A DNA stretch of 64,000 nt from Amoebophrya sp. A120 (lineage: Eukaryota; Protista; Dinoflagellata), in contig CAJINV010000005.1 in assembly GCA_905178155.1 (NCBI GenBank), positions 5,458,690 to 5,522,689 of the forward strand, read 5' to 3'. The notes under the pieces were generated by a model. It saw only the letters and a list, made by a program, of their open reading frames with translations, ran no database searches and was not told the origin of the DNA. Below are positions 1-61,700 of the stretch, piece by piece; positions within the stretch are counted from its first letter, which is position 1; each line of letters starts with the position of its first letter. A program made the position numbers and the translations under genes.

Positions 1-3000
1 TCCTCTTCGTTCGTCGAAACCACAAGACGGGAGAGTACGGAAAAAAACCACCAGGAGCACCAGACAACCTCAACCGCGCACGACACGAACGACGATTTCG
101 GCTGTGAGCACGGTGCCTGCGGTGATGAGGACTCTAGATACGCCAAGAGAAAACTGTTTGTTCACTGTAAAGTTTACAGTGAAAGAACCTGTAGTAATGC
201 AGAAAATGCATCGCTGAAGTGTTTGTCTTGCTGTGGACCCCCAGGATCAGGTAGACGAGGTCCCAGACCGAAGTGGTAGGCGCTTAGGGTGAACTATGTA
301 TGTAGGGCCCTTCCGTGCGGCCAATTTGTATGTCCCGCAACGGGGTTCGCCTATGTCGGTCATTTGTATGTGAGGCGATGGGTTACCCGGTCGGCAGAGC
401 CGATCCACAACGAACGAACGATACACATGCAAGACGAGTGATTTTTCGCGGCGTTTCCCCTTAAGATCCTCGCATGGCGAGTTTTCTTTGTAAAAATGTG
501 TAGCGAGCTTGTAATGCAAAACTTGCAATAAAATTCTATACAGTGAAACAGTTTTTTCTTACGATACTAGAGGCCCAGAGGCCACAGTCGACCTGCACTC
601 CGCCACGAAGCCCAGGATGCAGCCTGGAGGTCGGAAGAAAACTGCGGGGGGTCCTCCTATGGGAGTGTCAGGATCGAAATCGACAAAATCGAAAAACTTG
701 TAATGCATAAAATGCAGGGCACGCAAGGCCTGTGTTGGGGAGAAGGCAAATGAGACCGATAATTGCAAGCCTGTTTAGGGGAAGAAGACGCGTTGCCAGA
801 GAAGCATGACAGGAGCAGTGTTCTTTGCCCAAACAGCATGACAGACTGGATTTTGCAGCTCCCGAAATTTGTCATGCGCCACTTGGAAACTGAGGGCCCA
901 ACTGGTATCGATTTTATGCATCACAAATTTTTCGATGTTGTTGATTTCGATCCTGACACATCCATACCTCCCCGTGCAGATGAGGAGAATGGCGATGGAT
1001 GGTCGTGTACCATTTGTAAAAACGTCTCCACCTCTTCCCCAGAGTCAAGTAGACGGGAAATCTGCTAGACAAATCAGCATGCTTTGGCTGTTGCGCATGA
1101 CAAGTTCTTTGGGCGCGTAGTCGTGTGCTAGACGTCGCTTACGTTATTTCGCGCTAGTGCAGAAGCATCGCACATGCAGCATCTTACGCTGATTTGAGCA
1201 TCACAAATTCAGATTCCAAAAGAACGCGTACGAGTAGAATACTAAAACACTTCTACCACTACTCATGGGGCTTCGCATACGAAACATTTTGAGCATGCAG
1301 CTTTGCATGACAAGAACTCTGGGCACGACCACCTGGGGACATTTTTACACAGGATATCGTGTGACGACGACGACGACGACGATGGTGGAGAATCCGGACT
1401 GTGTATCCTGAGTAAAAGTGTCCCCATACCAGAGTCAAGATGGGAAATCTGCTAGACAATTCTCCAAGCTTTGGGAGTTTTGCATGACAAGTTTCCATCT
1501 GTAGTGTACTGCTGTTTAACAAGAGAAGCAGCATGAGAAAGCGAGCTTCTCATCCTGTTTACAGCATTACAAAGTCCAAAAAACGATTGGAAAGGCCTCT
1601 CATGGAGATGCGCATCACAAATCTTCCTCTCATTGCACATTTGCATGACAACTATGGGGTGGGGACGCTTTTACATACGATACTGTGCCCAGGCGGGTCC
1701 TCGTCCTCAACTCGCCCCGTCGAAGCGATGATGGCTCCGCCCGGTGGTCGTGAACAAGTTCTATCAAATGTAAAAATGTCTGGGTCTGGAACGATGCAAC
1801 TTGTGATGCGCATTTCACACCACACAAAAATCTGTCATGCATGCAAGCCAAAAGGTGCACATTTCCGGTCACCGAAAGAAGTGCTTTGTCATGCGGATGA
1901 CGCATTAGGAGACCTTCTCAAACAAAACCTGTCACGCTAGGGCGTGCATGGTAGACCTTCTGGGTCATGCCAAAGCTGCATCACATACCTCTGCATTTTT
2001 CCAGACCCAGACATTTTTACATTTGATAAGTTCAAGGAGGTGACGATCATGCTGGTGTTCTTACTCACCAGCGCGCGGCGCAGATGTCTTCCAACACGGG
2101 TCGTGGTCCTGCTGCGCGGGTGGTCACTGCGAATGCAAATGCGGGAGTAGGGGTGCAACAACTTGATTTCGACATTCCCGACCGAAATGGAGAGATCGTC
2201 GGCCACGCGACCATGGTCCCCGCTACCGGCGTCGTATCCGTGACGGCCACCCAGGGAAATACGGTGAGACAGTCTCCTATGGAACTGTCAAGATTGAAAT
2301 TGACAAAGTTGAAAAATTTGTGATGCATAAAACCGATCATACCAGTTGAGAGCCCCATTTCCAAGCGGTGCGTGACAAGTTTCTACGTCAGCGAAATCCA
2401 GTTTGTCTTGCTGTTTAGCGAAAGAAGGCATCCTTTGTCATGCTACTTTAGCAGCTCTATCTCAAACGACCCATTGCAGGCTCACAATCGGCCTCACTTG
2501 CAATCCCTGCAACGCAGTCACTTCGTGCCTTGCATTTTATGCATCTTCACAGATTATTTCAACTTTGTTAATTTCAATCCTGACACAACCATATCTCCGG
2601 GAGGACGGGCCGCAAACGGGCAGCAACTGCCCCCCGAAGTCTGGATCGAAACCAAGGATGGCGAATGGGTGTTTGTCAAAGCGCCGTACGTCTCTTACGA
2701 CCCGGTGACCGGGGAAGTACGAGTGCCCGACCCTACTGGTACAGCTGCAGCGACTGTGCCAACCTCTGCTCAGCAGCAGCTGTCCCGGGGAAGAAGAGGA
2801 CGACGAAATCTCGGGGGGAGACAAGATGAGCAAGAAGATCTATCCTGTGCAAAAGTATCGTACTAGTCGAAATTGCATTACAAATTTCCTCAGCATGAGA
2901 GATAAAATTTGTAATGCGGACTTACATTAAGGAAAAGAAAAAGATTTGTAATGCATGACTGCAATGCCTAGGACTACGAGTGCGATACTTTTGCACAGGA

Positions 3001-6000
3001 TGAGATCCCTTGGAAAACGATCCGCTGATGCAGCCCGATCCTGATTTGGATCTGCATGTTATCCTGAGTAAAAACGTACCCACACCAGAGTTGTAATGCA
3101 AATCTGCATGCTGAAAATGTTTCTCATGCGGAGCTCCATGAGAAGCATTTTCTAGTCGTGTTTTGCAATTTGTCATGCTCCAATCAGCATGGTATGCTAG
3201 ATCTGTGATGCTGCTGAGCTAGCTCAAACAGCACTACACTACGAATCCAAATTTGTCATACAAAACGGCCAAAGCTTGTGGATTTGTCTAGCCGATTCCC
3301 CATCTTGACTCTGGTGTGGGTACGTTTTTACTCAGGATACATGTTGGCGAGACGGGGAACTACAACAACTACCCCAATTATGGGCCGCCTCGTCCTCCCG
3401 CACCGCCCGCTTGGCAGCAGCAGCAGCAGCAGCAGCAGCGATACGGTTCTGTCGCTTATTCCAACCAGCACCTCGTGCTGGGCCAACCTGGCTTTCCCGC
3501 TGTTCTTGGTCCTGCTGTTGCAGGAGGAGCTCCGTGGGCGCCTGCTCCAGCTGCGCCGCAAGACCGAAACCGAGGGGGGTGGAACAACGACAAGAGCTGG
3601 TGGAAAGAGAACCACGGCAACCACGAGTGGAACGACGGCAACTGGGGGCGGAAAAACCACGGCGACGGGTGGAAGTACGACTACCGGGGGCGGAACAGCA
3701 AGTGGCGGCAGCCGCAGCAGCCACAGCAGCCGCCGCCGCAGCAGCAGCAGCAGCAGCTGTTGCGGCAGCAGCAGCAGGAGTTCCGGCGGGAGCAGCAGTT
3801 GTTGCAGCAGCAGCAGCAGCAGCAGCAGTTGTTGCGGCAGCCGCAGGAGTTGTGGCAGCAGCAGCAGCAGCAGCAGATGGAGCAGCAGCAGCAGGAGTTG
3901 TGGCAGCAGTTGCAGCAGTTGCAGGAGATGGTGCAGCATCAGCAGAAGGAGTTGTTGCAGCTGCGGCAGCAGCAGCCGCAGTGGCAGCAGCAGCAGCGGC
4001 AGCAGATGGAGCAGCAGTTGCAGCAGTTGCAGGAGATGTTGCAGCGGCAGCAGCAGGAGTTGTGGCAGCAGTGGCAGCAGCAGCCGCAGCAGCAGCCGCA
4101 GTGGCAGCAGCAGCAGCAGCAGATAGAGAAGCAGCAGCAGCAGTTGCAGCAGTTGCAGCAGTTGTTGCAGCGGCAGCAGCAGGAGTTGCGGCAGCAGTGG
4201 CAGCAGCGGGGTCCTCCTGCTCCTCAACAACGACCGCCAGATGACCTTCGTCCAGATGGCCATCCTCCTGCTCCTCGAACGCCGCCGGCCCCCGGCGTCC
4301 ACACGACCTACGAGTTGTCTTTCCCCCGTGAACTTCGCCCGGTCCACCCGGAAGAGGTTTTGGGTGAGGACTCTTTCCCCCCGCCGATATCCAGTGCAAA
4401 AGCATCTTCGCACTCCTGCTCGTCGTACTTCTAATCGCAGTTATGCATGACAGATCTATGACCACCTGAGGGAACAAGTAGTGGTCAGCATATAATAAAT
4501 TAACAAGCTCGACGTCCTGCGTTTCTTCCCTACGGAAAAATTTGTACTATTTTTGCGATTTCTACTATATACGATTACGATTATACTTTTGCAATGGATA
4601 GCCGATGTTGCCCGACAATGCAGACGACGCGGAGTTTATCCAGGAAAAAAACTGTGTAAGTGTAAGCTTCTTGGTGGAAGAGCATCGCAATTTTGCTCTG
4701 CACGACACAGAAAACCTCCTCCTGTCATGCGTAGCTAGTACGTGAAAACACGCACGAAAATTCAAATTGCCTCTGATGCATGTCCAGCATGACAAGTGTA
4801 ACAGTTTTGCATTTTCTGCAACGCAGAGTTACACTTACACAGTTTTTTTCTTCCATAGAGTTCGTCGGGGTGGTGTCCGTCGTGACGCAGGTGCTGGTTC
4901 TGACCCACGAGCTGCTGGAAAGCTACGAGGGGATTCGAAATTGGGATCCGCCACATCCTGGTATGTTGTCTCGAATTCAACAATTCATCGACGACAGTAC
5001 CTCCTCCACCTCCTGTCCGTATTTCAGCCAAGAGAATGCCCGGAAAGTGCGCAGCGGGCCCGCACAACCCAAACCGGAAGCCAAACCGGCCGCAAAACCG
5101 GGTGCAAAAGCCAGGAACCTGAGCAGCCTGTTGCTGTCTGGCCAGTTGATCTCGTCCCAGCTGTTTTTCATGAACGACTTGGACCAGGTCCGGGAGTGGC
5201 TGGTGGACTTCGACAAGTACATTCAGGAGGAAGTTTATCCTGAGAAAAAACTGTCTCAGTCTCAACTTGTAATGCGCAACTTCCTTGGGACAGTTTTTTG
5301 TCAACATGCTCGACATGCAAGAAAGAGAAAGTCGTCTTTGATCATATGTGTTTTCCGTTTTTGTGTTTGACGCATCACAGGTTTTCCGTGTCATGCTGAG
5401 CAAATTTGGGTTGCCGAGCCAGACAGTTTTTCTTGCGATAATGTTTTTATCGAGAAGATTGTTCTTGACGGACGAGAACAGCCAGCGAATGACCCTGGTG
5501 CCTTCTGGTCGCACAACGCGCTTCACAAGAGGATTTGCGAATATGCAGCTCACGATCCCCCTCATGGTGATGACTATTTCGAGGGGGGGGATATCACGTT
5601 GGGCCGCCCAGTTGTTGATGGAACGCCGCGAGCGCCGTGGTCGTGCTTTATCAAGCCTGAGGCCACGGCAGGGCCGAGCCGTGCGCCCGACGAGAAGCAA
5701 AAACGTGTAAAGCTGGAAAGGCACGCTGCGCTCTGCGGCGCGCAAAAACATTTGATCGAGCCGCTGCAGAAATTTCTCGGGTTGGGGCAAGCAGGTGTCA
5801 ATGGGGTGCCGTCGAGAGCACATGTGCCGTCGAGAGAAGAGCGAAGAGGAGACGACTTTGGGACGCAGTTCCACTTGCCCGAATGGGTTCTTCAACTACT
5901 GCAAGAAGGGAAGCAGAAGCTCGACGGAGCGAAACTGTGCAAAAGAGCTTACGTCAAGGACCCCCAGCATCCGACCAGCGACACCGCTGAGCCCATGTGC

Positions 6001-9000
6001 TCCGACGTTCTTCATACGCGGTCGTGCGAGATTTTGCGCGTAGACTTCTGTGAAAGAGTTGAGGATTCGGGTGGTGGCGGTGTTAGCGGACAATTGGGGG
6101 TGAATCCGAGGAAGTTTTCCGAACTGGGCTCGTCGCACCCAAACAACGGGAAACCTTGCTGCGAAAGGAGCGCAGCCGGCATCAACGTGTTCGAGCAGGG
6201 TTACTTCGAACAGATATCAAATGCAAATACGTCTGGGTCTGGAAGAATGCGACTTGTGATGCTGCATTTGGATTCCAAAAAAATCTGTATTGCATGAGCA
6301 GCAAAGGGAATGCGATCTCTGCTCCGTGGAGTGGGCATTTGTCATGCTGAGTAGGCATCTGCAAGATGCCCTAAAAAAATCTGTGATGCTACGGCATGCA
6401 TTACAGACATCATGGCCCATGCAAAATGTGCATGACAAGCTCCGACTCTTCCAGAGCCAGACTTTTTTGCGTTTGATAACAGAATCAAAAACCCTTACGC
6501 AAAATGCTTGGCGCGTCGAATGAGCACACGACGCGACTTCTCTCCGACTCGAACAAAGATTTTGGCGCAACGCACGAGTTATGGATTGCAAACGTGTCTT
6601 CATCTGCGTGGATCTCTGGAAACAACAAGGAAAACTACCTGTGAAGTAGTAGATCCTCTGTAAATAACCGGTTGGGGATGATTTTTGCAATGCTCGAAGG
6701 AGCCAACATGGCTGCTTTCTCGCATGACAAATTGAAAGGAACAAGCTAGAGCCCACCTATTGCTATTACAAGTTTGGCTTTATTTCTACTTCCAGATCCA
6801 GACATATTTGCAGTGCATACGAGTTGGCGCGGGAGTTGGTTCTCACGGAATTGCAGCTCGTCGAAACGTATGCATTGCAAAAGTATCGCACTCGTAGTAA
6901 TTGCAGTAGTTATGCTGCATTACAAATCTACATCCCAAGGTAAAACAGCATGACAAATTCCATTTGTCATGCTGAGGTAATTTGTAATGCAATCAAGTAC
7001 TGCTAGTACGACGTGCACGATGCTTTTGCAGTTCATAAAACTTATGCGTTGCAAAAGTTGTATCGCACAACTAAGACTAACATTTTAGCAGCACCAGAGA
7101 AGATCTGCGCATCACAAATTTGGTCAGCATGAACAATAGAATTTTCGTATGCTGGTTCTTAGCATACGAAGATTATAGGTCTGGTTTTTAGCGTACGAGA
7201 AAGAAAATCATACATGATTTTTACCATTACAGTTTGTTAGGAGTATGATACTTTTTTTGTACAGGATAAAGATCTGAACGCGGTGAGCGAGTTGGGACTT
7301 CGTGACGAAGCCGACCTCTTACGAGAATTCGGCCGAGAATTCGGCCTTCCGTATGGGAGTGTCAGGATTGAAATCGACAAATTTGAAACAATTTGCAATG
7401 CATAAAACGGATACCAGTTGGCCCCTAGTTTTCAAGTGGCGCATGACAAATTTGAGTAGAACCGAAATCCAGTCTGTCATGCTGTCTGGGTAAGGAAGGC
7501 GCCTTTTGTGATGCTACTTTAACAGCTCTATTTCTACAACCCCTCAACAGGCTTACAATCTGCCTGCCTTGCCTACTCTACAAGACAGGCATTTTGTGGG
7601 TTGCGTTTTATGCGTCGCCAACTATTTCAACTTTGACGAGTTCAATTATCCTGACGCTTCCATATTCCGGAACCAAGCCCGCGGCACACATACCAAAAGG
7701 TCCAGCAGATTTTGGCTCCGGAGCGGCAGCGGCTGCAGCACCTGCGGTGGCTGGTAGATTTGAATGACGTCGAGTTGTTGCGGAGGCAGAGCCCTATTCA
7801 ACCTCAACGGGGAGGTCCTCCGGTGCCTAATGCGGCAAGTAGATCACCTCCAACGCGAACGCCGCTCGACCAACTGAAGACTGCGATCATCGAGTTCCAG
7901 TTCAAACCAATCGTCGAGTTGCACACCTTATGAATCGCAAAAAGCAGATCGTCATCGTAAGTACTACTAATAGTATATTCATCATAGTGCGAAAATCATA
8001 TGCGCCGGCGCTGCAAATCTTTTTCCTAAGGTAAATCCGCACGGTTGCAGCAAAGTCCATTTCTCATGCTGATGAAGTTTGTAAGTAAATGCAATAGCAA
8101 TTGATGTTACTAGTAGTAGTACTAGTAGATACGATTACGATACTTTTGCAATGCATACACGTTTGCTCGCATCTACCTGGATCATGAACAACAGCCGGAC
8201 GCCGCCCAGCCGCCGGGTTCAACACCTTCGTCCCCTGGTGCTAGTGCAGCAACAGCAACAGCTGCATGGCAAATGTCTGAGGACATGAAAGTACAGGCGG
8301 AAAAAATAACCGAGGCCGTGAAAGGGGATCGCGCGTTTTGCCCCTTGTTGCCAGGGCGAAGGGAAGCTGACTACATGCCGAACCTGGTCCACTTCGAGAA
8401 GTGGAAGGTTTTCTACGCCGATTCTGTGCCTCGGGGTGTTTTGTCGCAGGTTCTTGAACGCATTCCCGAAGAGCAGAGGGAGACGCTTCGTAACCAGGTT
8501 AACGAGGCACGCAACAATCCCGATGAAAACCGTGATTTGATGTTCGGTCAACTTGACGCGTATGAGGGCCGCAGAAAAGCGCTGCGTGACGCGGAAACAA
8601 GTATCGTGACTGGTCCGCTTGAGTTTTTGCGAACCGCGATGTGCGAGTATTCCTATGGAGCGAAACGCGCCTTGCACCAGTACGACGCCAAACTTGTTGC
8701 TTTTGCGAACAAGCGTCATGGTCGGCATCCTGATTTGCCGCGGATCCAAAGCAGAACGGACCATTTTCTGGAGGCGAGTGGTACCCCCGTTTCCCGAGCT
8801 GGGGCTGCACCAGCAGGTGCAGCACCGCAAGCGGCTCCTGCAGGGGGATCTCGTGGAGGAGGAGGAGGAGGAAGTCGATCCCCCCAACAAGCACAATCGA
8901 GACCACAAGCGGCGCGTCGTTCCTCTTCTGCGCTGGAGCTCCCGCAGCAGAGCAATTCCCAAAACAGCATCTCGTCCGTATGGGAAGCTTCTCAAATGTT

Positions 9001-16758: not shown

Positions 16759-16906
16759 ACTACTTCCAGTAGTTGAAACCTTGTTTCCACAACCTGCCAC
16801 AACCTGCAAAAGAACTTCTCGTTGGCGACACGCTCGCACATCCACTACTTCGCATTTTCGACCAAGACTTCTAGTCTAGTTGAAAGTGCACCACCCAAGA
16901 ACAAGC

Positions 16907-39034: not shown

Positions 39035-39066
39035 GCGGCCATCGCAGAAAGAGGGACGCAGGGTTC

Positions 39067-42787: not shown

Positions 42788-45414
42788 GTGCCAATGGATG
42801 GTGGAAAATAAATTCTAGAACTTCTAAAGAGCGCAAAAACTACAAAGTGCGAAAGGAGGATGGAAGAACCAACTGTAGTTGAAAATAGAAGTTGATGTCC
42901 TCAAGAAGAACAATGGTTTCAGTTTCAGATTATAATGGCCCGCCAGGTCCGTGAGGAACTTACTACAACTAGAGAGGGCAAGAACTTCTACGTACTTACT
43001 TACAGTTACAGCGAGTAGTTCTACTAGTTGGAGGATATCTTTATCTTCAGAATTTCATGCTGCTTTCTTCTTCTCCAGGACCAGGACCATTAAGATTGAC
43101 CAAGTTTGGTTATCAGTCCTGGTCCAGCAGAGACGAAGAGGAAGCAGGACTGAATCATGGCACTTCGCTGCGCCAAAAAAAAGCTTGTTTTTCTACTGAA
43201 GAGAAGATCAACATCAACCAGCAAGAACTTCTTGAAGAAAACTTTGATTGCGCGTGCTTTTTTAGAAGGGATGGAATAAGCGGAAAGGTAGTAAACTGGT
43301 GAAAAAAAAGATAAAAAGAAGCAGAGCAGGGCCGCGGTCCATCTAGTGGTGGAACGACCGCTAGTCTTGTTTCCGGCCAAGAACAAGCCTCTAGTTCTGC
43401 TGAGCAGGCAAAGGTTCGGGGTCGCGTGGTAAATAATAACAAGGTGTTCAACTACATCTTGATCTTCGTGGCGCTCCCAGACGTCGCAGAACGACATCTG
43501 TCTTGTGGTCGTTGTGTAGGTTTACTTTCGGTCCGTCCTCGTGTTGAACTTCTAAAAGTCGTGGTCGTGATTGAATGAGTAATACTTATTTCCGAGACGC
43601 AGCGGCAGCTGCTCCTGGCGATTAATATATGAATGGGCAAAATAGAAATACAAAAAGGCCTCAATAAAGATTTTTCTAAAATCAGAAAAACGCACAACCT
43701 GCCACGAATACGAGACAACTACCCAGCACGAATCAGGGCACGCCCTCAGACGAACTGCAGCCCCCTGCTGCCCATGAAAAAAGGACGAGAACCGTCTTCG
43801 CCCCCTCTGTCGGCCACAAATAAAGGCCTGGGCGCGGCGGGCGAAGATGGTGGTCGCCGCAGAGTAGGAGCGCGAAAGCAATTTATTACCGCACACAGCA
43901 CTGCGCCGCAAAGAAAGAAAAAAGTTTTTCCGCAATAAATAAAGCATGAAGAACATCAAGGCAGCGCGAGCTTCGTTGAGAAAGCCGAAAGATAGATTTC
44001 TCTCCCGACGGCCCACTCTCTTCGAACGCAATTTCTCTCCACCAGGGCCAGCTGGGCTTGTTGGGGAAGGAGTTGCCGCGTCTGGTGGCGCGGCTCAATA
44101 CAGTTTGGAACATCTTCTTCTGGGGGCGCTCAATACTGTATACCTATACTGTTTCTCGTCGTCCCACATCTATTATCACAAGGAATGCCCAAAGGATATT
44201 GCGAGATCAGTTTATATTAGGAGGAAAAACTTCTCCTGACTGAAGATCTCAGAATTATCAACATGGAGGACCCATTTTTCTATTGGTAGCTACTTAAGTA
44301 CCCTTGTGCGCCGACGTAGCATTAGTATGAAAGAAAAGCAAGAGGAAGGAAGATCTCACCTAGTTTCAACTTTCGTGCGATCTCCTCGTCGTATTTATTC
44401 TTGGCCTTTTTTTAGACTAGAGCGTGCCTGTCGTGTTTGGTCATCTGCAGGTAGGTACTACGTGTACGACAGCGATACGTCCGATCTATTAGACAACCCT
44501 CCTTGTTACACCAGCTACTAGCAGCAACGAGCCCGAAGTTGTTGTTTTTGTGTTTCATCTCTCGATCAACATACCAGGAAAGGAGCCATATTAACGCGGC
44601 CAACCAGCAGAGATCAAAAATTCGGAAGATGATCTACATGTGCAGCTTCTGTAGTTGGTTTCAGCACGACGCGGGTGGTTCAATAGGTTGTGAAGCTGGC
44701 TTTTTTTTTATTTCTTCATCCTGTTACGCATGTTGTGGAATTCGAATTTCAGGGCGACGCGCCGTTTGAAATATTGTTTCAAATTTTCTAATTCTAACTT
44801 GCTATCTTGCATGTATAAAATCTTAATTCTTGTTGTTTTTTTTTCTGGCACACGACATATTTGGCCAACTTCTGCATAAGCATGATGTAGATGTTGACCA
44901 AAAGAGCCGTAAATAAAATATCAAGTTTCACCCGCCTTCTCGCTTCCTGTAGCTCTTTTAGTGTGTCTATTAGTCCTAATGAGATGATCTTTTTGTTCGT
45001 CAGACCGACTCGGACGACGACCATGAGTTGCAAGTAGATCCTTTCCCTGTGAACGTTGGTTTTTGGCGTAGTAATTGTATTCAAGAGCTGTTTATAGTTT
45101 TTCGAATACCACATTTTGCGAACACGATAAAAGTTGCACACACCGAAGGTCAATGTTTCGAACTTATTTTTTCACTTCGGAATAATGTTTGTCGTGATTC
45201 AAGAACATATTCGTCATCGTATTTCCCCGTTTGAAGATGATGTCTCGACTGCATAATTAAGCTCTACAACTTCTATTTGGTGTTGGTCGGAACAAAGGGG
45301 AGATTTTTTGTTGCTTGTTTACGCACAACAGTTCAGCAACTACTACAGCCCCCGCTTTTATAATTTCATCGATCCTAGATGCGTTTGTAGCACCGCTACC
45401 GCAAGAGGAAGAAG

Positions 45415-51400: not shown

Positions 51401-54400
51401 CAAAGAAGCCGACGAGGAACCAGCTAGAGAGCGAAATTTATGGCGTTCTCAACTGTAACATTCTCAACCGTTACATGAATTTGTCATGCACAATGGCCAC
51501 AAGCCTCCACTTGATCAAGGTGCTCCTTGGCATGACAAATTTTCGAAGGGCTAAGCAGCATGATAATCTGTGGCAAAAAAAAATCTGTGATGCGAAAGCT
51601 GCAATGTTACCGCTTTCGGTTTTGCTGTTCTTGCATTACAAGTTTATGTAACAGTTGAGAATGTAACGTTTGCGAACGCCATAAAATTTTGAAGGGAAAT
51701 TTAACAGTCGGTCAGCTCCGGGAACTCGTGGCGAAAGAGCGCGTATCAAATGCAAATATGTCTGGGTGGTCTGGAAGATTGCAACTTGTCATGCTAAATC
51801 TGAATCAGGCAAAAAACTGTGTTGCGTGATTGCCAAAAGCTGTGCACTTTTGACCTAATCGAGAGGCAGTTTCTCACGCAGAATAGGCATTAGAAAGGTC
51901 TCGCAGAATCTGTCATGCTATGTCCTACATACCAGACCTCATGGGTCACGGAAAACCTGCATGACAAGTCTTGCAATCTTCCAGAGGACCCAGACATATT
52001 TGCAATCAATAGCGCGCGCAAAAGCAACAGGACGACGAAATCCAAGCTCTGCAGGGGGAGCTGTGTCTTCGCTACAAGAGCCTTGCTAACGGCCCGATTG
52101 AAGCTGGCTATGAGGAGATGTTCACCGAGGAAGAGATCCAAGCTGTGCCTTTCGATATGGCGCTCTCAACTGTTACATTCTCAACTGTTCCATGAATTTG
52201 CTATGCAAGAATGGCAAAAGTGAAAGGAGGGGGCTTGCGCGTCTTGCATGACAGGTTTGGCACAGATGGAGACGCTGTTTAGCCCTTCGAGAACTTGTCA
52301 TGCGAAGCAGCTTGATCTTCGTCTGGTGGCTCATGGTCATTTTGCATCACAAATCATGCAACAGTTGAGAGTGTAACTTTTGAAAGCGCCATATTCGAGC
52401 AGATCGACTTACGGCGCAAAAACGGCAAGCTTTCCTCCGCATTGTCGCAGGCACGAGGACCTGTTGGTGGGGAAAAAAGAACTTCTTGCCCCGGCAAGAA
52501 AACGACGACCACAGGAGGTGGTCATGATCTTCATGCGCAAGTAGAGCAGCATCTTCAAGAGCAGGGCCGCGCCGCAGATGTTGCTGCTCGTCCGGAGGGC
52601 CACGACGAGGACTTAGGCTTTGCTGACAGCAACTCAGACGATTCATTCGACTTCTCCGCCTGGGAAACGCACGAGGTTCGAAGTCGGTTGAAACACTTGC
52701 TGGCAAAACGAGAGCCTGACGAGGCCTATATTTTTACGGATGAAGAGGTAGAAGTAGAACATCAACAAGCACAAGCACGAAACCCCGCCCAGGGGACTCG
52801 AACACAAGAAGGCCCCCCAGAACAACCTCAAGCTGCTGCATCTGCTCGGGTGGTTTCTACCACGACGAAAACGGCTAACCACGAGGAAATTGCGGAAGTC
52901 CTGCGCACGACGCGGAAACTCACTCCCTGGGACTTTGTCAACGAAGCCGTTCAGGCTTTTCTCGCTGAGGATGTGGTACAGGACTTTTTGCAGGCCGCCG
53001 CAGAGTGGAAACCCCTGCTGGCTGGCATGCGGACTACAACGGGCCATGGTGGAGGCGGTTTTTCATTCAAGCGTGAAGAGCGTGAGCACAACAAGAGGAA
53101 GGGGACGAGCATCAACATGAAAATAAATTTAAATTCATCAGGACAAAAGGAAAAGCCAACGCCAACTGATTACCAAGCGGAGATAGACTTCCTGCAGGAG
53201 ACATTTGACACGGAAAAGGCCAGTATTGCGGACAGTAACTTTGACTACGCGCTGCTTGCCATGCAGGAAGAGGAGCAGGTGATTCTTTCCCAACTGAAGC
53301 GCATCCGGCAGCGGAGCGGGGGTTTGCTGAACGATATGCAGTGCAAAAGTAATATCGTACTCCTCGTACTACAAATGCATTACAAATTTTCTCAGCATGA
53401 GAGAAAAAAATTGTAATGCGGATTCAGCATCAGCTTCAGAAAAAAAATTGTAATGTATGATTGCAATTACTGCGAGTACGATACTTTAACTTTTGCACAG
53501 GATAAACGAAAAGAAGTACGGACTGATGATCAACGAAGTGCAGGGTTTATTGCACTTTCGGAACAAACAGGCACTTGCACAAGAAGAAGCGCGATATGTT
53601 GATGACGAGCTGCGCATTGACAATGATACGAACGAACTGGAGGAAGCGTTACTGAGGGAACTGTCTGCGAAACTGCCCTCGTCTATGAACATATGAAATG
53701 CAAAAGCATCGTACTAGTAGAAATCGCATGACAAATTCCCTCAGCATGAAAAATGAAATTTGTAATGCGGATGGAGGTTACGAAAGAGATTTGTAATGCA
53801 TGACTTGGATTACTACGAGTGCGATTCTTTTGCACAGGATAGAGCAAGATCTTTAACGACTTGCTTTTTGAGGAGGTTGTGATGTCTGGCGCCACGCAAG
53901 CATATGCATTGCAAATATGTCTGGGTCTGGAATAAATTTCTCATGCAAGGAAGGGAATATTAGTGACCACACCGCAATGCGCTCCCCAGCATGACAAGTT
54001 TTTCCGTGCTGGCTCAGAGCTGCGTGCTCCGCATGAGAAGCCGCGTCTTTGCATGACAGACAAGAGGACCTATTGGCGGGCACGCAATAGTACAGAGTTC
54101 AGAGTCATGCCAGACTAGCATGACATCCCCCAGACCCAGACATATTTGCAGTTCATAAAGCTCATCTGTCTGCAAATGCTGGGATCGGCACGACGACGAA
54201 CAACACGACGGGCGGCAAGGATCATAGTACCGTGGGAAGTGGAAATGGCCCGGTAGCTGCAGGAGGAGGAGGTTATGGCACCACGGCGACGGATCCTATT
54301 GGCCAGGAATTACCCCCGAAAATTGTCGGTTATATTAGCGACCTGGATCATGCTATCGCAAGAAAAAACTGTGTCACTGTGAACTTGTGATGCAGAAAAT

Positions 54401-57400
54401 GGAACGCAGAACTATTTGTCTTGCTACACCTGCAAGACATTGGATTTTCAAGCGTGTTTTCCCTTGGGAAACGTGCATGGCAAATTTTCTGTGCCATGTG
54501 TATACAAACTTGTCACGCGGTTCTTGCAAAATCATCACAGTGAAACAGTTTTTTCGTGGGATACATGCGAAAGCCGTCGAGAAGATGCAGCAGAGTGGAC
54601 ATCAAAGCGGGGCTTCCTCGCATGGGAACGGTCCTGCTTTGTTCCAGGTCAAAACTGCAACTACTGCGTCCTCGCAAGGATCAGCATCTTCCCCCTCGTC
54701 GGCCCCGTCCCAGCATCAGATGAACAGCAACGCGCCGTATAGCACGACGCCACTGGTGCACCCAGGGTTCCACCTCCGCAATATCCTGCGCACCAACCCG
54801 CGAGACACGGTCCGGTACGAGGCCTGGTTGTATTGGCGCATGTGCAAGGGGAAGCTACAGGCCCCGCTGAGCAGCAAGAAGTTTCAGGACCTTGATCTGG
54901 ACAAATTGCTGGCGGGGCACGAAGGAGCTCCTGGTGGTGCAGCAAGAAGTACTATCACGGGGGGCGGGAAGGGCCTGGGCCGCACGGTCGCGGGGAAAAA
55001 TGCCAGATCTTCATGCAGCCCAGAGGCGCTGACGAAAAACCTTCTCTACCGCGCCCAGCGTGAGGAATGGGAGGAAGCTGTGGCATTGGCGGACATTCAG
55101 GATGACATCGTTCCACCCCCAATTGTTTGGAGGCGGAGCGATACTAGAAAAAATTCGGCTCCGGCAGCTGACATCAAGCAAGGCAAAACTAGTCCAGAGG
55201 ATCAACAACACCAACAGACGAAGAAAAAAGAAGGAGATCATCGGGCCGCTGGTGCACAACAAGCAGGTACTGCTGGATCATCATCTAAGCGAGGAGGTTC
55301 TTTTGCTGTTACCGACACGATCACGAACCAGGGAAATGGAGCTGCACCTAACACGACGACCAATGCAGCAGCAGCAACTCCAGCATCTTCTACTACTTCC
55401 AATACTAGCGCTTTCCAGAGTTTCTTTGAGGGCATCCGCAATTATTCCGTGAAAATTAACCATCCCCATCCACTTTGTGCATGACAAACAGAGGACTTTA
55501 TGCATGTTTTGCATGACAAACTGGATGGGGATGGTTGATTTTCAGGGGATAGCAATGCGTTTAGCTCGGGCGCAGGATTGTCTGGAAGTACGAAGGCGCA
55601 GCGGGGCGGGCGAGAAAAAGCCACGAGCACGACGGCAGATCGAGACGATCAAGATAAAAAGATGCAGGTGGACGATGCTCATGATGCTGCTAGCACAGAA
55701 GCAGCGGCAGGGTCGTCGCATTTCGAGGACCATGGTGAGGGCGGAGAGGTGAACGAGGACGATGAAGACGGCGAAATTATGAACGATGCCCATGCACCAG
55801 CTGATCTCGCAAAAGTTCTAGACAAGCCTCTCACTTACGGCGAGATCCTGGCTTCTTGGATGTCAGCGATGGGCCTGAAATATCCTGTGCAAAAGTATCG
55901 TACTCGTAGTAATCGCAGTCATGCAATACAAATCTCCTTCTTGACCTGAATCCGCATTACAAATTGCATTTTCCATGCTGACGGAATTTGTCATGCGATT
56001 ACTATACATTATATTCATGCGAAAAAAGAGGTAGACAGAGGGTCCCAGAGAGGTGGCCGAGAGGTAAAAAAGAGGTCGACAGAGGTAGAAAAGAGGTCGA
56101 CAGAGGTGGAGAGGTGGCGCGGGACCCCGTTCGAGAGGGTCCGCGAGAGGGTGCGCGAATAAGGCCCGCAGTAAGCGCCCACCCTTAGGCGCCGCCTAAG
56201 TGGCGCAGAGGGTGCAGAGAGGTCAAAAAGAGGGTGCGCGAGAGGTCGACAGAGGTGGAGAGAGGTGTTGCGAATAAGGGGCGACCTCTCGCGGACCCTC
56301 TTGGCCACCTCTCGGCCACCTCTCGGCCACCTCTGTCGACCTCTGCCCGCGAGTATAGCCGGATTATTAGCGGGGACCCCCAAAAGAGGCCAAAAAGAGG
56401 GTCTGCGAGAGGTCTGCGAGAGGGTAAAAGCACAAAGAAGCGGGCGCGAATCCGCATGGTAGTGCCCATATTTGGCATTGCAGGCCATTCGCGGACTTGT
56501 TTTGTTCGGCGCCTTTCCGTGCCGCCCTCTCGCGCACCCTCTCGCGCACCCTCTCGCGTCACCCTCTCGCGCCACCCTCTCGCGCACCCTCTCGCGCCAC
56601 CCTCTCGCGCCACCCTCTCGCGCACCCTCTCGCGCCACCCTCTCGCGCCACCCTCTCGCGCCACCCTCCCGCGCCACCCTCTTCCACCATGCAACTTCTG
56701 TTCGCCCCCGGTGTTCTTTGCAGCTGCTCCCTGCGCAGAGCGCCCACAGGCGCGGGAAGCGCGCAAGTGGTCCTGCGGCTTGGCGCGGCGCAAATCGGCG
56801 GCAGGGATCCAGTGTGTTTCGTTGTGCCTACTAGGCCCGTGGGGTTGTGGTCCGAGCGGCAAACAGCCTTGCCCCGGCCCAACAGCCTTGCGCTCCGGCG
56901 GCAGCCGGAGCATGGCTGGTTTCTACTAGTGCGATACTTTTGCAATTGATATGAAAAACGCAGTCCGGGACTCTCTCCGGGGTCCGAACGCGAAGACGGT
57001 CGCGGTCCACAACTCCGATGTAGGCGTGCCTGGCACGCCCACGCAGGTCGCGGTTTTGAATCAGAACAAAGTGCTCGAGTCGGTGCAGCAGTCGGTGGAT
57101 ACCAAAGACCGGAAAGTGCTGCACGCATTTTTGGAATTCCATGAGGCAAGCCGCGAAATTCAGTCCGACGAAGTAGTGGAGTTCGGCGACAAGGATGTTC
57201 TTGTGTCGGCGAACGCGGAAGAAATGCGTGCGTTTTTCACCAGGGTGAAAAAGTCGATGAAAAGCAAAGGCTATGTCTTACAAAAAAAAGTGTGACAGTC
57301 ACGACGCCTTTTATTTTGTCGGAGCTTTAGCTAGCAGCAGCAGCACAGATTATAATATAGTTCGAATTTCAAAAATGTGCTCTACCTGTTGACAAGGAAT

Positions 57401-58391
57401 AAAACAGTACCCAGGTGATCATAAGGCAGCACACGCACTCGCACGAAAAGAGGCTGACAAGCATAATTTGCCTCGACCTGGCTACAAGCATTTTCTTTTC
57501 TTTTTCGACAGTGTGACCGTTAGGCATGACAAAATGTTTCTGTCCTACCTGGCCTCCTACAAGAATACAGTGTGATGTCGCTGTGGCTTTTTTTTTCTGT
57601 GCATAAACTCCCGACGGTGAAAAACCGCAGGCTGTATTACGAGCATCTCATCTATGGGGTTCTCAAACGTTACACTCTCAGTTGTTGCATGAATTTGTGA
57701 TGCTAAAGCAGCAAAAGCGAAATCGGGAAGGTTGCGCGTGTTGCATTACAAATCTGGACCGGATCGTGAATCACGCTTTTTACGTTCACCCCTTCGTGAA
57801 TTTGTCATGCGAAAGCACCCTGATCGTGTGGCCGCTTATTGCAGTTTTGCATGGCAAATCATTATCATGTAACGGCTGAGGGTGTAACGCTTGAGAACCC
57901 CATCTCATCTACGAAAAGGTCGCGACGGAGCGAGTTGCGCAGCTGCAACGGGTATGACTTGCAAAAGCATCGTACTAGTAGTAATCGCATCACAAATTTG
58001 CTCAGTATGACAAATGGAATTTCTCATGCTGATTTACCTTGAAAAAGAGATTTGTCATGCATACATGCGATTACTACGAGTGCGATACTTTTGCACAGCA
58101 TAACGGGGCCGCGCGGACCTCATGTGGGACCTGTTTTTGCACAAGTTCAAGAAGCTGCAGACCGCGAGTCTGCGGCTTGCAGAGAGATTCGAGGACTTGG
58201 CAGAGAATTATGGAAGATACCTGGAACACGACCTAATCGACCCTTATCACCGCGAGGAGGTGAAGTTGCTCCAGAAATTTATCGCTGTAGAAGAAAAAAA
58301 GCACCGGAATGAGCCGGGGTGGCAAACGCTCGCGCAAGAAGTGCAGGATATGACCGAAAAAAGCCCCTGGCGATTTGTCGTGCTGTATTGA
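45415..58391 (+). CDS. Very large multi-exon hypothetical protein interrupted by 21 introners (start uncertain; may continue into 58706+)
   Basis: Frame continuity checked at 47081, 47543, 49090, 50349-52393 (7 junctions) and 55881. Hydrophobic stretch SLLSYVLALAAGSASV at ~46540-46590. Confidence 0.75.
47081..47189. mobile_element. Introner family M (109 bp)
   Basis: TIR TATCCAGGAAAAAACACCCATC.CCATCCA; DR ACTGA. Confidence 0.94.
47543..47872. mobile_element. Introner family H
   Basis: TIR GAAAAAT...CCCTCCCCATAT; DR ATACG. Confidence 0.9.
48382..48637. mobile_element. Introner family E
   Basis: TIR TATCAAATGCA..TGTCTGGGTCT / AGACCCAGACATATTTGCAATGCATA; DR CGCTT/CGCCC. Confidence 0.85.
48685..48849. 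mobile_element. Introner family L
   Basis: TIR TATCACAAGGAAAAGTGTTAACGTTAA; DR GGCTA/GGCCA. Confidence 0.88.
49090..50005. mobile_element. Family C introner with a nested ~770-bp insertion
   Basis: TIR TATCAACTGCAAAAGTATCG / CGATACTTTTGTACTGCATA; DR GCGGA; host frame YNAE|LRLQF restored. Confidence 0.9.
49127..49896 (-). mobile_element. Putative non-autonomous Helitron-like insertion inside an introner
   Basis: Minus strand starts TCCTATACTATACGAAAAG and ends ACAGCTAG; no TSD; splits the host TTGCA|TTAC motif. Confidence 0.5.
50349..50619. mobile_element. Introner family E
   Basis: TIR TATGCATTGCAA..TCTGGGTCTGGAA; DR CGGTC/CGGCC. Confidence 0.88.
50652..50796. mobile_element. Introner family C
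   Basis: TIR TGCAAAAG.ATCGTACTCGTAT; DR TGAAT. Confidence 0.93.
50817..50994. mobile_element. Introner family C
   Basis: TIR TATGCA..TGCAAAAGT / ACTTTTGCAATGCATA; DR TCTTT. Confidence 0.9.
51080..51394. mobile_element. Introner family H
   Basis: TIR TATCAAAA..AAAATCCCCC; DR TCCTT. Confidence 0.9.
51439..51683. mobile_element. Introner family G
   Basis: TIR TATGGCGTTC / GAACGCCATA; DR AAATT. Confidence 0.92.
51744..52011. mobile_element. Introner family E
   Basis: TIR TGCAAATATGTCTGGGT..TCTGGAAGATTGCAA; DR GCGCG. Confidence 0.92.
52156..52393. mobile_element. Introner family G
   Basis: TIR TATGGCGCT..GTTACA.TCTCAACTGTT; DR TTCGA. Confidence 0.92.
53335..53504. mobile_element. Introner family C (opposite orientation to 50652 copy)
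   Basis: TIR TATGCAGTGCAAAAGT / ACTTTTGCACAGGATA; DR AACGA. Confidence 0.92.
53692..53841. mobile_element. Introner family C
   Basis: TIR TATGAAATGCAAAAG / CTTTTGCACAGGATA; DR GAACA/GAGCA. Confidence 0.88.
53903..54157. mobile_element. Introner family E
   Basis: TIR TGCAAATATGTCTGGGTCTGG; DR AAGCA/AAGCT. Confidence 0.88.
54354..54563. mobile_element. Introner family A
   Basis: TIR GAAAAAACTGT.TCACTGTGA; DR CATGC. Confidence 0.92.
55443..55551. mobile_element. Introner family M (109 bp)
   Basis: TIR TGAAAAT.AACCATCCCCATCCA; DR GCAAT. Confidence 0.92.
55881..56951 (+). mobile_element. Composite family C introner with ~0.9 kb GC-rich cargo
   Basis: C-type TIRs, DR TGAAA; host frame MGLK|NAVRD restored; sister copy at 36928-38031. 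Confidence 0.9.
56525..56682 (+). repeat. 12-13-bp tandem repeat CCCTCTCGCGC(C)A (~12 units)
   Basis: Directly visible inside the cargo of the composite element. Confidence 0.9.
57272..57605. mobile_element. Introner, A-like (divergent)
   Basis: TATG..AAAAAAAAGTGTGACAGTCAC / GTGA..CTTTTTTTTTCTGTGCATA; internal GCATGACAA. Confidence 0.6.
57653..57904. mobile_element. Introner family G
   Basis: TIR ATGGGGTTCTCAA.CGTTACAC.CTCAG; DR TCATC. Confidence 0.9.
57953..58102. mobile_element. Introner family C
   Basis: TIR TATG..TGCAAAAG.ATCG / CGATACTTTTGCACAGCATA; DR ACGGG. Confidence 0.9.
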
Positions 58392-58705
58392 TAACATTGA
58401 CATTGACATACTTTTTCAAGTAATTTTCATCTACTTAGACTGGCGTCTATTTTGGAATAGAAACTTGTGGTCCTCCTGTTGATGTACTTGATGTTTTGAG
58501 ACGGCAAAATCCATAGTGCCAAGTTTCTGTCATGTTTCGTTTGATTTGGAAAAATATAGCAATCGATGAAATATGCGCGTTAATAGCGTTTCTTGAAAAC
58601 AACAAATGATACCGACCACGGCGCATATTTTGTATTTTCAAGAAGAATTTCAATTCACACACAAAACAATAAAACAGCACCACGCGCAACAAGGGAGAGC
58701 AGAAG

Positions 58706-61700
58706 ATGTCAGTGGGTGTGAAGAATCCAGTTGAACTGTTTGGACTGCAAGAAACAGCAGCACCTCCAGACGAGCAGAGCCAGAATGCATCAGCAGATCA
58801 TGATCATGTAGATGGAGCTCTTGGTGCAGCAGCAGCAGCTGCGCAGCGACACGGACAGCAGCAAGGTGAGCCGCCTTCTCAACGCCTGAACGACGTGAGC
58901 AAAAAGCTCTTCCTCAACAGTGACCAGCAGGGCTCCAAAATGAATTTCGAAACCACACCGGACGAGCTGCAAAAGCTGCAGGAGGGCCGGAAATCTTTCC
59001 TCATGCATTCTTACGCGCGGGTCATGCGCGCGTTTTGGGACGATTTGGGACTGAATGCCGCGGACAGAGTACCGTCGTGAGAAAAAAATGTTTCACTGTC
59101 AGGAGTTTGCAAGTTTTGCATTCTTTTTACAAGTTTGCTACACGAGGGCATGTTGACTTTGAGAAAGAAAACTTGCCACGCGTAAGTACTTTGTCACGGA
59201 ATACTTAAAACACGTTGATAAACCCAATGCCTTGCATGTGTAGCAAGAAGACAAATGTGTCTGTGTAGTTGCATAATTCTTTGCTGCGTCACAGGTTTAT
59301 TACAGTGAAACAGTTTTTTCTTGCGATACCGAGCGCCTATGGTTCATGCGGAGATGTGGTTCAGGGAGCTGAATTTGCTCAGAACTGACGTTTTGAAATA
59401 TCTAGGACTGAGCGCAGGCATCGGTCTCAAAGCGGCCGCGTCTCCAACTACAAATCAAGGAGGCAACGCTGGTACCGGAAGCACCACTATCCCGAATGCG
59501 GGCTCTAGCGGTTCATCTGGAACTGATCCAACTAGAAGCGGAGCTTCAGCGTCCGTGCCGCCGCAGCCTACAAGTGTTGTACAAACGCCGTCTGCCCCGT
59601 CTGTGGTAAATGCGAAGCCGAAGCCGCCGCCAGCGGGGTTCGAAGGAGCAATGGAGCAGCCTCCTGGTTCGTTCGCGGCACAGCTAACTGCAACGACCAG
59701 CAAGGCCAAGGCGAAAGCGGGTGGGAAAAATGCCGCGAGGACTGGTGCTCCTGTAGAGGACAAAAAACAAGCAGGTACTAAGCATCCGCCCCTGATGAAA
59801 GCAACGCCAAAGCTAATCCCTCCGAGGGTAAAAAACAGCCAGCAAAAACAAGATTCGGAGCAGGCAGCCCCTGCTGGCAGCAGCACGCCGGCGAAAGGCA
59901 CTAGTACCCCAAAGGCGGGCGGGGCTCCTACAGGAGCTGCAGCAGCACCAACTTCTACACCAGCTCCGCAACTTCAACTGCCGCGGGAAGCGGCGAAGTT
60001 GCTCACCTCGATGATTTCGAAAGAGCAGTTTGAGAAAATCGGCATGGCGGATCTGATATCAAATGCAAAAATGTCTGGGTCTGGAGACTTGTGGTGCTGG
60101 GTGACGTATCATGGGAAGGCCACAAGTGCTGGCTCAGCATGACAAGTTTCTGAGCTTCTAGGTGTTGCCTACTCTGCATGACAGACTGCGTCTCTGCATG
60201 ACAGAAAGTTGGGCTCTTGGGTAACGTGCATGACAGATTTAAGAGTCATGCCAGACAAGCACGACAAACATGCACTCTTCTAGACCCAGACACTTTTGCA
60301 TTTCATATCGGAAAAAAGAGTTTGTGATACAAAGGTTGAAGTTTTTGAAGCAAGTGGATGAGTACAGAGGTCAGCTGACGATTATGCAAGGAAAAAACTG
60401 TGTAAGTGTATCTTTGTCTTGCAGACGTTGCAATTATACAGTTACACTTGTCATGCTGGATATGCATCAGAGGCTATTTATTTCCTGCTACGTGTTTTCG
60501 TGTACTAGCTACGCATGGCAGGTTTTCTCTGTCATGCAAAACAAATCTGTGATGCTGTTCCTGCAAAAAAGTTACACGTACACACTTTTTTCTTGGATAA
60601 CGATGCGGAAGGAAGAGAAAAAAATTATAACCAGTGCAGATACAACTGCAAAGGCGAAAGGAAAGGCAACAGCTGGCGTGATTCCAAGTCCAACCAGCAC
60701 GGCCGGCAATACTACAAGTGGAGCGCCGTCCACTTCAACATCTGCAAGAAATACCCGTCCCTTCCTGACCGCGTTTCAGTATCCTGAGTAAAAACGTACC
60801 CACACCAGAGTCAGGATGGGGATTTTGCAACACAAGCCTAGGAGTTTTGTGAGTCACGCATGACAAGTTGCACTCTGCAGTGTAGTGCAGATTAGCAAGT
60901 GCAGCCGCGTCACAGATTCATCTGCTCATCCTGTTCACAGCATCACAAATTCCAAAACACGATTGGAAATGGCTCTCATGCGGATGCGCATTACAAGTCT
61001 TCCTGTCTTTGCAAATCTGCATTACAACTCTGGCGTGCTGGGTACGTTTCTACTCAGGATATTCAGCTGCCGGACCTCACGCGGGAAGAACAGGTTCTTG
61101 ACGAGAAGCGAAGCCAGGAGGTGCTGGAGCATTTTTTCTTTGGATATCCACAGTAAATTTCCCGTACACGTACAGATGCGGTCTCTGCATGACAAAACTT
61201 GGCTTCGATCCTAGTTTAGCATGACAAGTTATTTTACGCTCCAAATTGGTGAAATTTGTGATGCATTTTGTACATGTTGTGCGGGAAATTTGTGTTGCAT
61301 ATTGGAAAAATGGACAACGGGGTCTACGTGTGGTACGATAATGACGGCGGGAACAACATTTTCAAACCGGTGCTGAAAAAACTCATTCGGGGCGGGAAGG
61401 TGGATGAACAGGCGAGCAGTAGTGCTCCGCCTGCTCCTGTTGTTCCTGCAGTGTCTTCACATGGTAGTGCAAGAACTGGTGACGTAGAGATGGTGCAAAC
61501 GGCAACGTCGACCTCCGCGGCCTCTAGTGCGGCCACCGGAGCAGGTGGCGCAGCAGCAGCGCCGCTGCCTGCTATGCCAGCAAGTAGAACATCAGCTGCG
61601 CTTCGAGGTGGTGGTGGAGCAGGAGACGATGGAGCTCCTTTTTTTGTCCCGAACAACACAAAACTCATCGACTCGCTCGGCCTAGAACAGCCCCGGAAGC

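Follow-up and report, generated by a model that had tools for sequence, protein, structure and literature searches.

A common internal motif with a preferred pair distance in otherwise unrelated introner families of Amoebophrya A120

Introner elements and their internal motif

We analyzed a stretch of 64,000 nucleotides from the dinoflagellate Amoebophrya sp. A120 (contig CAJINV010000005.1, positions 5,458,690 to 5,522,689; hereafter, the window). It contains host genes interrupted by 86 inserts, which are A120 introner elements and cover 24,730 of the 64,000 bp. Exon 5443–6207 is 100% identical to the A120 protein P0122, which places the elements in A120 genes. A short motif, GCATNACAA, is repeated inside nearly all of these elements, and it recurs in same-strand pairs 31–33 bp apart in families whose interiors are otherwise unrelated. 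Previous work reported that ~29,850 repeated introns make up 17% of the A120 assembly and grouped the introners into 1,954 families, and it left both the mobilising enzyme and the removal mechanism without a published answer (PMC7789003).

The element set was assembled by an inverted-repeat search and a search for TAT and ATA ends with flanking duplications, followed by hand curation. The curation was made with the motif list already known; the motif-blind element set described below is the cleaner test. Exact TAT...ATA ends were found in 75 of the 86 elements. The 5-bp target duplication was perfect in 50 elements, had one or two mismatches in 24 and at least three in 12, so that 74 of 86 carried it with no more than two mismatches. 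An earlier note on this DNA, made from the letters alone, had called the terminal inverted repeats (TIRs) of the families unrelated. The interiors of the TIRs do differ, but the TAT termini and the 5-bp duplication are common property. The published inverted repeat (TAT, seven variable bases, AAA) was recovered, with A at 0.81–0.92 in positions 11–13 of the end logo, and AAA is not kept in families A, B, G, N3 and N4. The border direct repeat of 5 bp lies within the 3–5 nt described for introners. The elements are also similar to MITEs (miniature inverted-repeat transposable elements) in having TIRs, a duplication of fixed length, many copies and no coding capacity; their summed depth in sequencing run X4 reached 2e5, compared with ~30 on exons. 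No base preference at the target was seen among 163 sites.

The exact motif occurs 163 times in the window (80 on the plus and 83 on the minus strand), compared with 2.97 ± 1.68 expected from 100 dinucleotide shuffles. All but one of these occurrences, at 12871, fall inside the 86 elements (162 of 163), in agreement with the earlier suggestion that the motif is rare in exons. A matrix trained on element interiors gave the degenerate form ~(T)GCAT[GCT]A[CG]A[AG][AG]T, and its sites amounted to 20.2 per kb inside elements and 0.86 per kb outside, confirming the enrichment that the earlier note had proposed as a check. At least one site is kept in 85 of the 86 elements. When sites within 14 bp of an end were left out, the nearest site lay 30–52 bp in for 368 of 434 ends and less than 30 bp in for 6, with modes at 31–34 and 40–45 bp. 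A motif-like word was also seen at offset 3 in 55 of 438 ends, mostly in families C, E and J. We rejected the idea that the TIR is itself a motif copy, as this is true of just those 55 ends.

The distance between sites is sharply peaked. In 83 of the 86 elements (three with nested inserts were excluded), we counted 68 same-strand pairs at 31–33 bp, where 9.4 ± 3.0 were expected and the maximum in 500 shuffles was 20. Exact matches alone gave 14 such pairs compared with 1.6 expected, and when one element was drawn per family the pair was present in a median of 8 of 13 families (1.4 expected). Other recurrent distances were 16 and 33–34 bp for convergent sites, 15–17 and 46–51 bp for divergent sites, and 18, 39, 49 and 54 bp on the same strand. 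A flat distribution, which the earlier note had named as grounds for refutation, was thus not found, and the eight pairs that it cited all lie at 31 or 32 bp, the minus-strand starts being one base lower than it gave. Five of the eight are exact at both sites:

1801–1840, minus strand: 31-bp pair in the family E copy at 1762–2028; one mismatch in the second site (1832)
6254–6293, minus strand: 31-bp pair in the family E copy at 6215–6478; two mismatches in the second site (6285)
17060–17100, plus strand: 32-bp pair in the family J copy at 17018–17168; 17060 and 17092 exact
25415–25454, minus strand: 31-bp pair in the family D copy at 25384–25666; 25415 and 25446 exact
41305–41345, minus strand: 32-bp pair in the family L copy at 41235–41395; 41305 and 41337 exact
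47113–47153, minus strand: 32-bp pair in the family M copy at 47081–47189; one mismatch in each site (47113 and 47145)
50690–50729, plus strand: 31-bp pair in the family C copy at 50652–50796; 50690 and 50721 exact
55479–55519, plus strand: 32-bp pair in the family M copy at 55443–55551, which is oriented opposite to the copy at 47081; 55479 and 55511 exact

Two further descriptions in the earlier note concerned families E and M. The 54-bp spacing of family E is indeed a family mode; spacings of 42–43 bp are present in copies 1762 and 6215 but do not hold as a family value, for which the mode is 39 bp. The 109-bp family M, as had been stated, is little more than its TIRs and one pair, consisting of two arms of 34–36 bp and one 32-bp pair.

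The spacing had been interpreted as three helical turns, with periodicity of ~10.5 bp expected in general. We therefore examined the period of all site distances, allowing an offset for opposite-strand pairs and taking one randomised element per lineage as the null. The best period was 10.3–10.4 bp with a coherence of 0.37 (p=0.0025 for a scan of 8–14 bp and p=0.012 for 7–22 bp). However, the signal was lost without the 31–33 bp pairs (p=0.25), leaving out one lineage at a time gave p=0.07 and 0.14, and a rival lattice of 16.5 bp scored 0.33 against 0.37. Nothing significant was found with pairs up to 300 bp apart, and phasing to the terminus over all sites was not significant (p=0.39); outward sites gave p ~0.02 in the narrow scan, which weakened in the wide scan. 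Thus, the peak at 31–33 bp is firm and three turns is a fair reading of it, whereas a general 10.5-bp periodicity is only suggestive.

A period of 10.3–10.4 bp is close to the value for protein-wrapped DNA. This raises the question of whether the array serves to place nucleosomes or dinoflagellate nucleoprotein in the chromatin, or to bind a transcription factor, the elements being tolerated or spread for that reason; introners of other species do lie in predicted linker DNA (PMC9860276). However, the motif is nearly absent outside elements, intergenic DNA included (1 of 163), the position of its first copy depends on the element end, and without the main peak the periodicity loses significance. 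We consider a chromatin role very improbable.

Independence of the families and replication in a second assembly

Family A is a label of this analysis, and the rows below carry no strand assignment. Site positions are counted within the element, with their orientation.

139–63633: all 86 TAT...ATA introner elements with 5-bp target duplications, holding 162 of the 163 exact GCATNACAA
658–966: family A, ~307 bp, sites 41- 73- 144+ 176+ 209- 257+; also 2278–2593, 7352–7664, 11254–11560, 42149–42482
17185–17507 and 38426–38748: family B, related to A
2841–3002: family C, ~150 bp, sites 34+ 52+ 68- 99-; also 4388–4600, 6869–7037, 7043–7268, 7929–8157, 11047–11208, 17992–18161, 19024–19181, 27887–28061, 29723–29874, 36928–38031, 49090–50005, 50652–50796, 50817–50994, 53335–53504, 53692–53841, 55881–56951, 57953–58102, 63489–63633
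3060–3339: family D, ~280 bp, six same-strand sites 31 62 111 144 193 224; also 1008–1356, 1404–1682, 9796–10174, 11617–11949, 19592–20038, 22495–22983, 25384–25666, 39067–39365, 60780–61061
1762–2028: family E, ~262 bp, sites 39- 70- 124- 163- 180+ 212+; also 6215–6478, 6580–6819, 10586–10980, 12010–12279, 16451–16758, 20188–20484, 20574–20875, 21075–21419, 21814–22116, 35415–35701, 35797–36084, 36208–36485, 36593–36854, 40705–40966, 50349–50619, 51744–52011
18235–18486: family E2, related to E, ~253 bp; also 38783–39034, 48382–48637, 53903–54157, 60057–60307, 63192–63455
54354–54563: family F, ~209 bp, sites 31- 62- 121+ 155-; also 139–566, 5236–5440, 59073–59328
4637–4857, 57272–57605, 60383–60599 and 62043–62255: family K, weakly related to F
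8979–9227: family G, ~240 bp, alternating sites 42- 90+ 139- 185+ without a 31–33 bp pair; also 40393–40634, 51439–51683, 52156–52393, 57653–57904
10210–10525: family H, ~320 bp, three 32-bp pairs; also 9308–9648, 17573–17925, 18555–18877, 19230–19564, 21451–21779, 47543–47872, 51080–51394
17018–17168: family J, sites 42+ 74+ 108-; also 61145–61301
41235–41395: family L, sites 33- 48+ 70- 102-; also 48685–48849
47081–47189: family M, 109 bp, two arms and one 32-bp pair; also 55443–55551

With termini stripped and motifs masked, local alignment between these groups stayed at about the shuffle level, except for A with B, E with E2 and, weakly, F with K, leaving 10 groups in the window. End-to-end alignment of family interiors, from which the earlier note would have read the spacing as common descent, was thus not observed. 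The 31–33 bp pair is present in 9 of the 10 unrelated groups, and in 12 of 14 lineages overall. A tandem-duplication origin of the pairs was rejected, as the units are only 30.5% identical outside the motif. Identity to the family consensus was 0.90–0.96 for motif cores, 0.63–0.81 for the other interior and 0.95–1.00 for the termini. The earlier note had held that the array, rather than the TIR, defines the system; this was not supported, as every family also has TAT termini with a 5-bp duplication, and conservation is higher at the termini than in the motif.

It may be asked whether the motif and its spacing are left over from deep common descent, or from module swapping among families, and currently have no role. 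The termini and the duplication length shared by all families make a common ancestor plausible, some families are visibly related, and the motif-like word at offset 3 would fit such an origin. However, the spacers are at shuffle level, yet motif and distance persist; within families the cores are far better conserved than the adjoining interior; and the number, order and orientation of sites vary among families. Descent may explain the origin of the motif, not its retention, and we regard the relic explanation as improbable.

We also scanned metagenome assemblies for the pair. The scan, which covered 8 of 64 parts, yielded 129 distinct loci, 62 of them from one assembly; 61 loci of this second assembly were used, L053 being dropped as a duplicate of L054. 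They hold the same families at a best identity of 76–94%, and one protein clusters with an A120 protein; the second assembly is further DNA of this species or of one nearly identical to it, rather than of a second species. A motif-blind finder, which used only ends and target duplication, called 139 elements in these loci and none on shuffles. At least two sites were present in 136 of the 139, consistent with the earlier description of several motifs per element. After we dropped 43 elements with the seed pair and two over 520 bp, the remaining 94 showed 96 pairs at 31–33 bp compared with 14.0 expected, and the pair was present in 14 of 16 family labels, including 3 of the 4 families that the window lacks. 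Of the 463 unique exact motifs in the loci, called elements account for 297 and other family-matched pieces for 127; the 39 left over, where inspected, fell in eroded or further element-like inserts.

In the other loci examined, the pair had no such context. The 75 loci outside the Amoebophrya assembly did not match the families, although three AT-rich ones gave weak finder calls; none of 121 prokaryote loci showed a TAT...ATA element around the seed or similarity to the elements; and eight viral loci with the pair had just two seed motifs each, with 0 viral matches to the family E pattern. Two loci, L089 and L111, hold the same four-copy tandem repeat of 31–32 bp containing the motif, without similarity to introners. 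Families outside the window were noted at L129:250-372, L017:196-399, L045:1178-1348, L080:1172-1377, L019:5344-5570 and L083:2648-2912, one of them being an element of ~120 bp with a single 32-bp pair, like family M.

In family C introners of the window, a repeat of ~0.9 kb (36961–37905 and 56006–56922) occupies one common position, on the stretch from the TIR to the first motif. It has no visible inverted repeats, the two copies are 87% identical over ~530 bp in opposite orientation, and a third copy was found in the second assembly (L027:3-790); this repeat may target introners. Other inserts nested in family C elements, at 49131–49900 and 63729–64000, had no match elsewhere in the window or the loci. 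The insert at 63729 breaks the first motif of its host element, and the sole site-less element of the 86 is the family C element at 49090–50005, which holds the insert at 49131–49900. At 6869–7268, two family C elements stand in tandem with one 5-bp spacer between them, and a transcript-like contig lacks both. In the elements at 35415–35701 and 36593–36854, the second duplication copy appears displaced by 2–3 bases from the terminal ATA.

Removal from RNA and the role of the motif

Taking out each element together with 5 nt produces plus-strand frames of up to 1660 codons, where the raw maximum is 599:

1–12333, plus strand: host reading frame of 1660 codons across 26 elements, each removed with 5 nt; 2028–8973 lies under transcript-like contigs that lack 12 elements
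16880–23503, plus strand: host reading frame of 657 codons across 15 elements
45391–48381, plus strand: host reading frame of 847 codons across M 47081 and H 47543
48645–58389, plus strand: host reading frame of 1404 codons across 18 elements
58673–62902, plus strand: host reading frame of 941 codons across 6 elements

Removal of the element with 0, 3, 4, 6 or 7 additional nucleotides fails to open the frames; only +5 (or +8) opens them. Residues 1–454 of 484 of an annotated A120 protein match the emptied frame if the upstream copy of the duplication is kept, and not if the downstream copy is. The coding frames also contain CAG-type glutamine-rich repeats (3407–4200 and 34150–34350). Local duplicated segments that by eye are unrelated to introners pair ~24200–24330 with 29960–30110 and ~28950–29550 with 30150–30800.

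Two transcript-like contigs from run X1, which is guessed to be RNA, lack all 12 elements that they span, with three exact joins and nine cases in which gap lengths of 219, 31 and 52 nt match the arithmetic of removal. All 12 covered copies are thus removed from transcripts without GT-AG ends. Template switching by reverse transcriptase is not needed as a cause of the joins, because the frames open only with the element and 5 (or 8) nt removed. Runs X1–X3 leave the exons of 46500–55900 uncovered, and removal of family M rests on reading frames; runs X7 and X8 had no match to exons. Contigs of run X4 read unbroken through whole elements and their junctions at a depth of 21–35, and this disfavours the DNA excision factor proposed in the earlier note.

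Like the internal eliminated sequences of ciliates, the elements could in principle be excised from DNA in a programmed way, with the motif guiding an excision complex. Such a process would suit an alveolate in which inserts are bounded by TA and the reading frame is exactly restored when they are taken out, and run X1 is just guessed to be RNA. However, the X4 contigs keep the elements through the junctions (contigs drop rare variants, and a minor excised fraction could escape them), the exons left uncovered by X1–X3 are as RNA would leave them, and the published evidence consists of RNA-seq junctions (PMC7789003). Programmed excision is therefore hardly credible here.

All 12 removed copies covered by RNA hold at least one site. 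The family C copies at 2841 and 6869, in opposite orientations, are both removed; C 4388 and C 7929, which have one site apiece, are removed too; and D 3060 is removed with five minus-strand sites. Core mismatches are equally frequent where the transcript reads GCAUNACAA (85/946, 9.0%) and where it reads the complement (94/1012, 9.3%; p=0.88). For each of the ten families counted, sense genes hold copies in both orientations; the same is true of B by its site pattern, and J and L (two copies each) are in one orientation each. All sites lie on one strand in 13 of 82 folded elements, 8 on the plus and 5 on the minus. The termini behave differently: in transcript sense their decay is asymmetric (2/258 compared with 10/258, p=0.036, at positions picked after looking). 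The first two 5' bases and the third-last 3' base are near-invariant (2/258, with 10/258 at the mirror positions), and these are possible splice-signal bases. Asymmetric decay is the behavior expected of a splicing signal, and the motif behaves otherwise.

Equal decay on both strands, together with the removal of single-site copies, favours recognition of double-stranded DNA during copying over a splicing signal, and the strand symmetry favours one factor that reads it. We therefore propose, with a probability of roughly 0.58, that a single protein recognizes the motif in double-stranded DNA when the elements are copied, and that selection on master copies keeps the word and the distance. The single DNA-binding factor of the earlier note finds support in the confinement of the motif to elements, the peaked spacing, the unrelated interiors and the strand symmetry; its identification with a transposase does not, as none was identified.

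The motif might instead act in RNA, by folding the intron through complementary GCAUNACAA/UUGUNAUGC helices, or by offering a site to an RNA-binding protein or guide RNA. The elements are removed at the RNA level, and in predicted folds motif bases are paired at 0.72 compared with 0.58 for the other interior, with the motifs of family G pairing mutually at 0.84; these values speak against the DNA-level proposal. However, motif-motif pairing is 0.09–0.10 in families F and D, and the consensus sites of D and M lie on one strand only, so that their motifs lack a consensus partner for an RNA helix. Removal of D 3060 with its minus-strand sites is a further difficulty, and a single-strand reader must take both the word and its complement, which decay equally. 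Action in RNA thus seems quite unlikely.

A host or domesticated factor bound to DNA might also mark the elements for co-transcriptional removal, one site being enough and the array serving both splicing and copying. This predicts strand symmetry too, and it agrees with the retention of at least one site in 85 of 86 elements and in every RNA-covered copy. U1 small nuclear RNA (snRNA) was undetected in A120, so that another way of finding introns is needed (PMC7789003). Exact motifs also persist in the eroded elements of L043. However, mismatch at the best motif positions (5–9%) is within the range expected from target-duplication decay (8.9–18% per pair), compared with 12/516 at the termini; core identity correlates with the identity of the other interior (rho 0.40); and the rigid 31–33 bp pair is dispensable for removal, as C 4388 and C 7929 illustrate. 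We consider a DNA-bound removal mark unlikely. A combined possibility is that one protein has two jobs, assembling the copying complex of an undescribed integrase-type transposon group, marked by TAT ends and a 5-bp duplication, and flagging inserted copies for a U1-less spliceosome; this we regard as doubtful. If it were true, intron recognition would be written in DNA rather than in RNA, and any sequence gaining TAT ends and the array would turn mobile and spliceable.

Under the copying proposal, the motif set would be the binding site of one trans-acting protein that copies all introner families; the prediction is either an integrase-type DDE transposase or a host cofactor on which the transposase depends. 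An integrase-type enzyme is suggested, by analogy, by the 5-bp duplication and the TA ends; a host cofactor is equally possible, in the way that a Tn7-like element uses integration host factor (IHF). The array may be bound cooperatively by several copies of the protein, with 31–33 bp as the preferred dimer spacing, and these would bring both element ends together; a 5-bp staggered cut would make the target duplication. In the master copies, motif and spacing would be kept by selection on copying, and the remainder would drift. The elements would be removed from RNA in a separate step, which likely reads the hairpin together with a few bases at the termini, not the array.

Several observations weigh against this proposal. 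The 31–33 bp pair is missing in family G and in the single N4 copy, sites are spread along whole elements and not just near the ends, and the fixed spacings of 18, 39 and 49 bp are off the 10.4-bp lattice. Neutrality of the motif after insertion is challenged by the finding of a single site-less element among 86, by the exact copies in eroded L043 elements, and by a drop from young to old copies of only 0.04 in the core compared with 0.08 in the other interior; moreover, the duplication decay brackets the motif mismatch, so that a partial role after insertion is possible. Pfam assigned no transposase family to any of 41 open reading frames (ORFs) scanned (0 of 16 window ORFs had a family, as did 5 of 25 from the second assembly, none of them transposase). 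A homologue search with 8225–9010 gave nothing and Rfam gave 0 matches. An autonomous element was not found either, the longest motif-blind calls being 622 and 631 bp. Farhat et al. (2021) likewise did not find a transposase in A120, which was said to rule out general transposase-mediated mobilisation (PMC7789003).

That one internal motif and a fixed pair distance run across unrelated families suggests a single machine for all of them, a view that goes against the published split into many families and several transposon classes. The 109-bp family M offers a minimal bait for finding the protein, with motif and spacer length as clear mutation targets, and by its signature the array could help to trace autonomous copies and to annotate introns whose inverted repeats are gone.

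Comparison with known systems

Introner elements, and subterminal sites in MITEs (PMC1636448), are already known; we did not find a description of motif sharing across lineages inside introns. The shared motif and spacing were not found in the text and searchable supplements of PMC7789003 and PMC12130899, as far as these were accessible (figures, two supplement files and theses lay outside the search), and wider literature searches, which did not extend to subscription papers or Roy et al. 2023, returned no description of the motif. The published A120 introners share with our elements the TAT, 7 nt, AAA inverted repeats, the short direct repeats, the repeated families and the non-GT-AG removal; the accessible text gives end motifs only, whereas here one internal motif and one 5-bp rule join the families (PMC7789003).

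Among integrase-like transposons, family 38 of the same genome is described as having '5-bp TSD, TA/TA Termini' (TSD, target site duplication) and Copia/Gypsy-like ORFs, and was likened to Ginger (PMC12130899). It shares the 5-bp duplication and TA/TA termini with our elements, but, compared by description, it is ~810 bp long with ORFs, whereas ours are non-coding elements of 109–490 bp, and the accessible text mentions no binding-site array (PMC12130899). IS3EU and GingerRoot have the same TA..TA termini, and GingerRoot, as here, lacks a target base preference (PMC10045372, PMC6839031, PMC2836005). Their usual duplication in these texts is, however, 6 bp, compared with 5 bp here, where removal with 6 nt leaves the frames closed. 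Ginger2/TDD elements are described with a 4–5 bp duplication that includes ours (TDD-4/5 have 5 bp with TGT ends), but with TGTNR termini in place of TAT. The accessible texts on these integrase-like transposons mention neither intron behavior nor subterminal arrays (PMC10045372, PMC6839031, PMC2836005). As for ciliate-type internal eliminated sequences, removal from the DNA of the expressed genome was not seen here, since the X4 contigs keep the elements.

The closest parallels to the array itself come from two other systems. In the Emigrant/Lemi1 MITEs, which are also non-autonomous and have TIRs, internal motifs are repeated, and their arrangement is important for cooperative binding (PMC1636448). 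Here, by comparison, 14 lineages that differ in their TIR interiors have the motif in common; it is matched in the TIR at just 55 of 438 ends, and its sites are element-wide. The TnsB arrays of Tn7-like elements similarly consist of several copies of one site with constrained distances to each other and to the ends (PMC10201428). Those elements are bacterial, have TG termini and show helical phasing by mutagenesis, whereas in the introners the 31–33 bp peak alone is firm and sites occur in both orientations.

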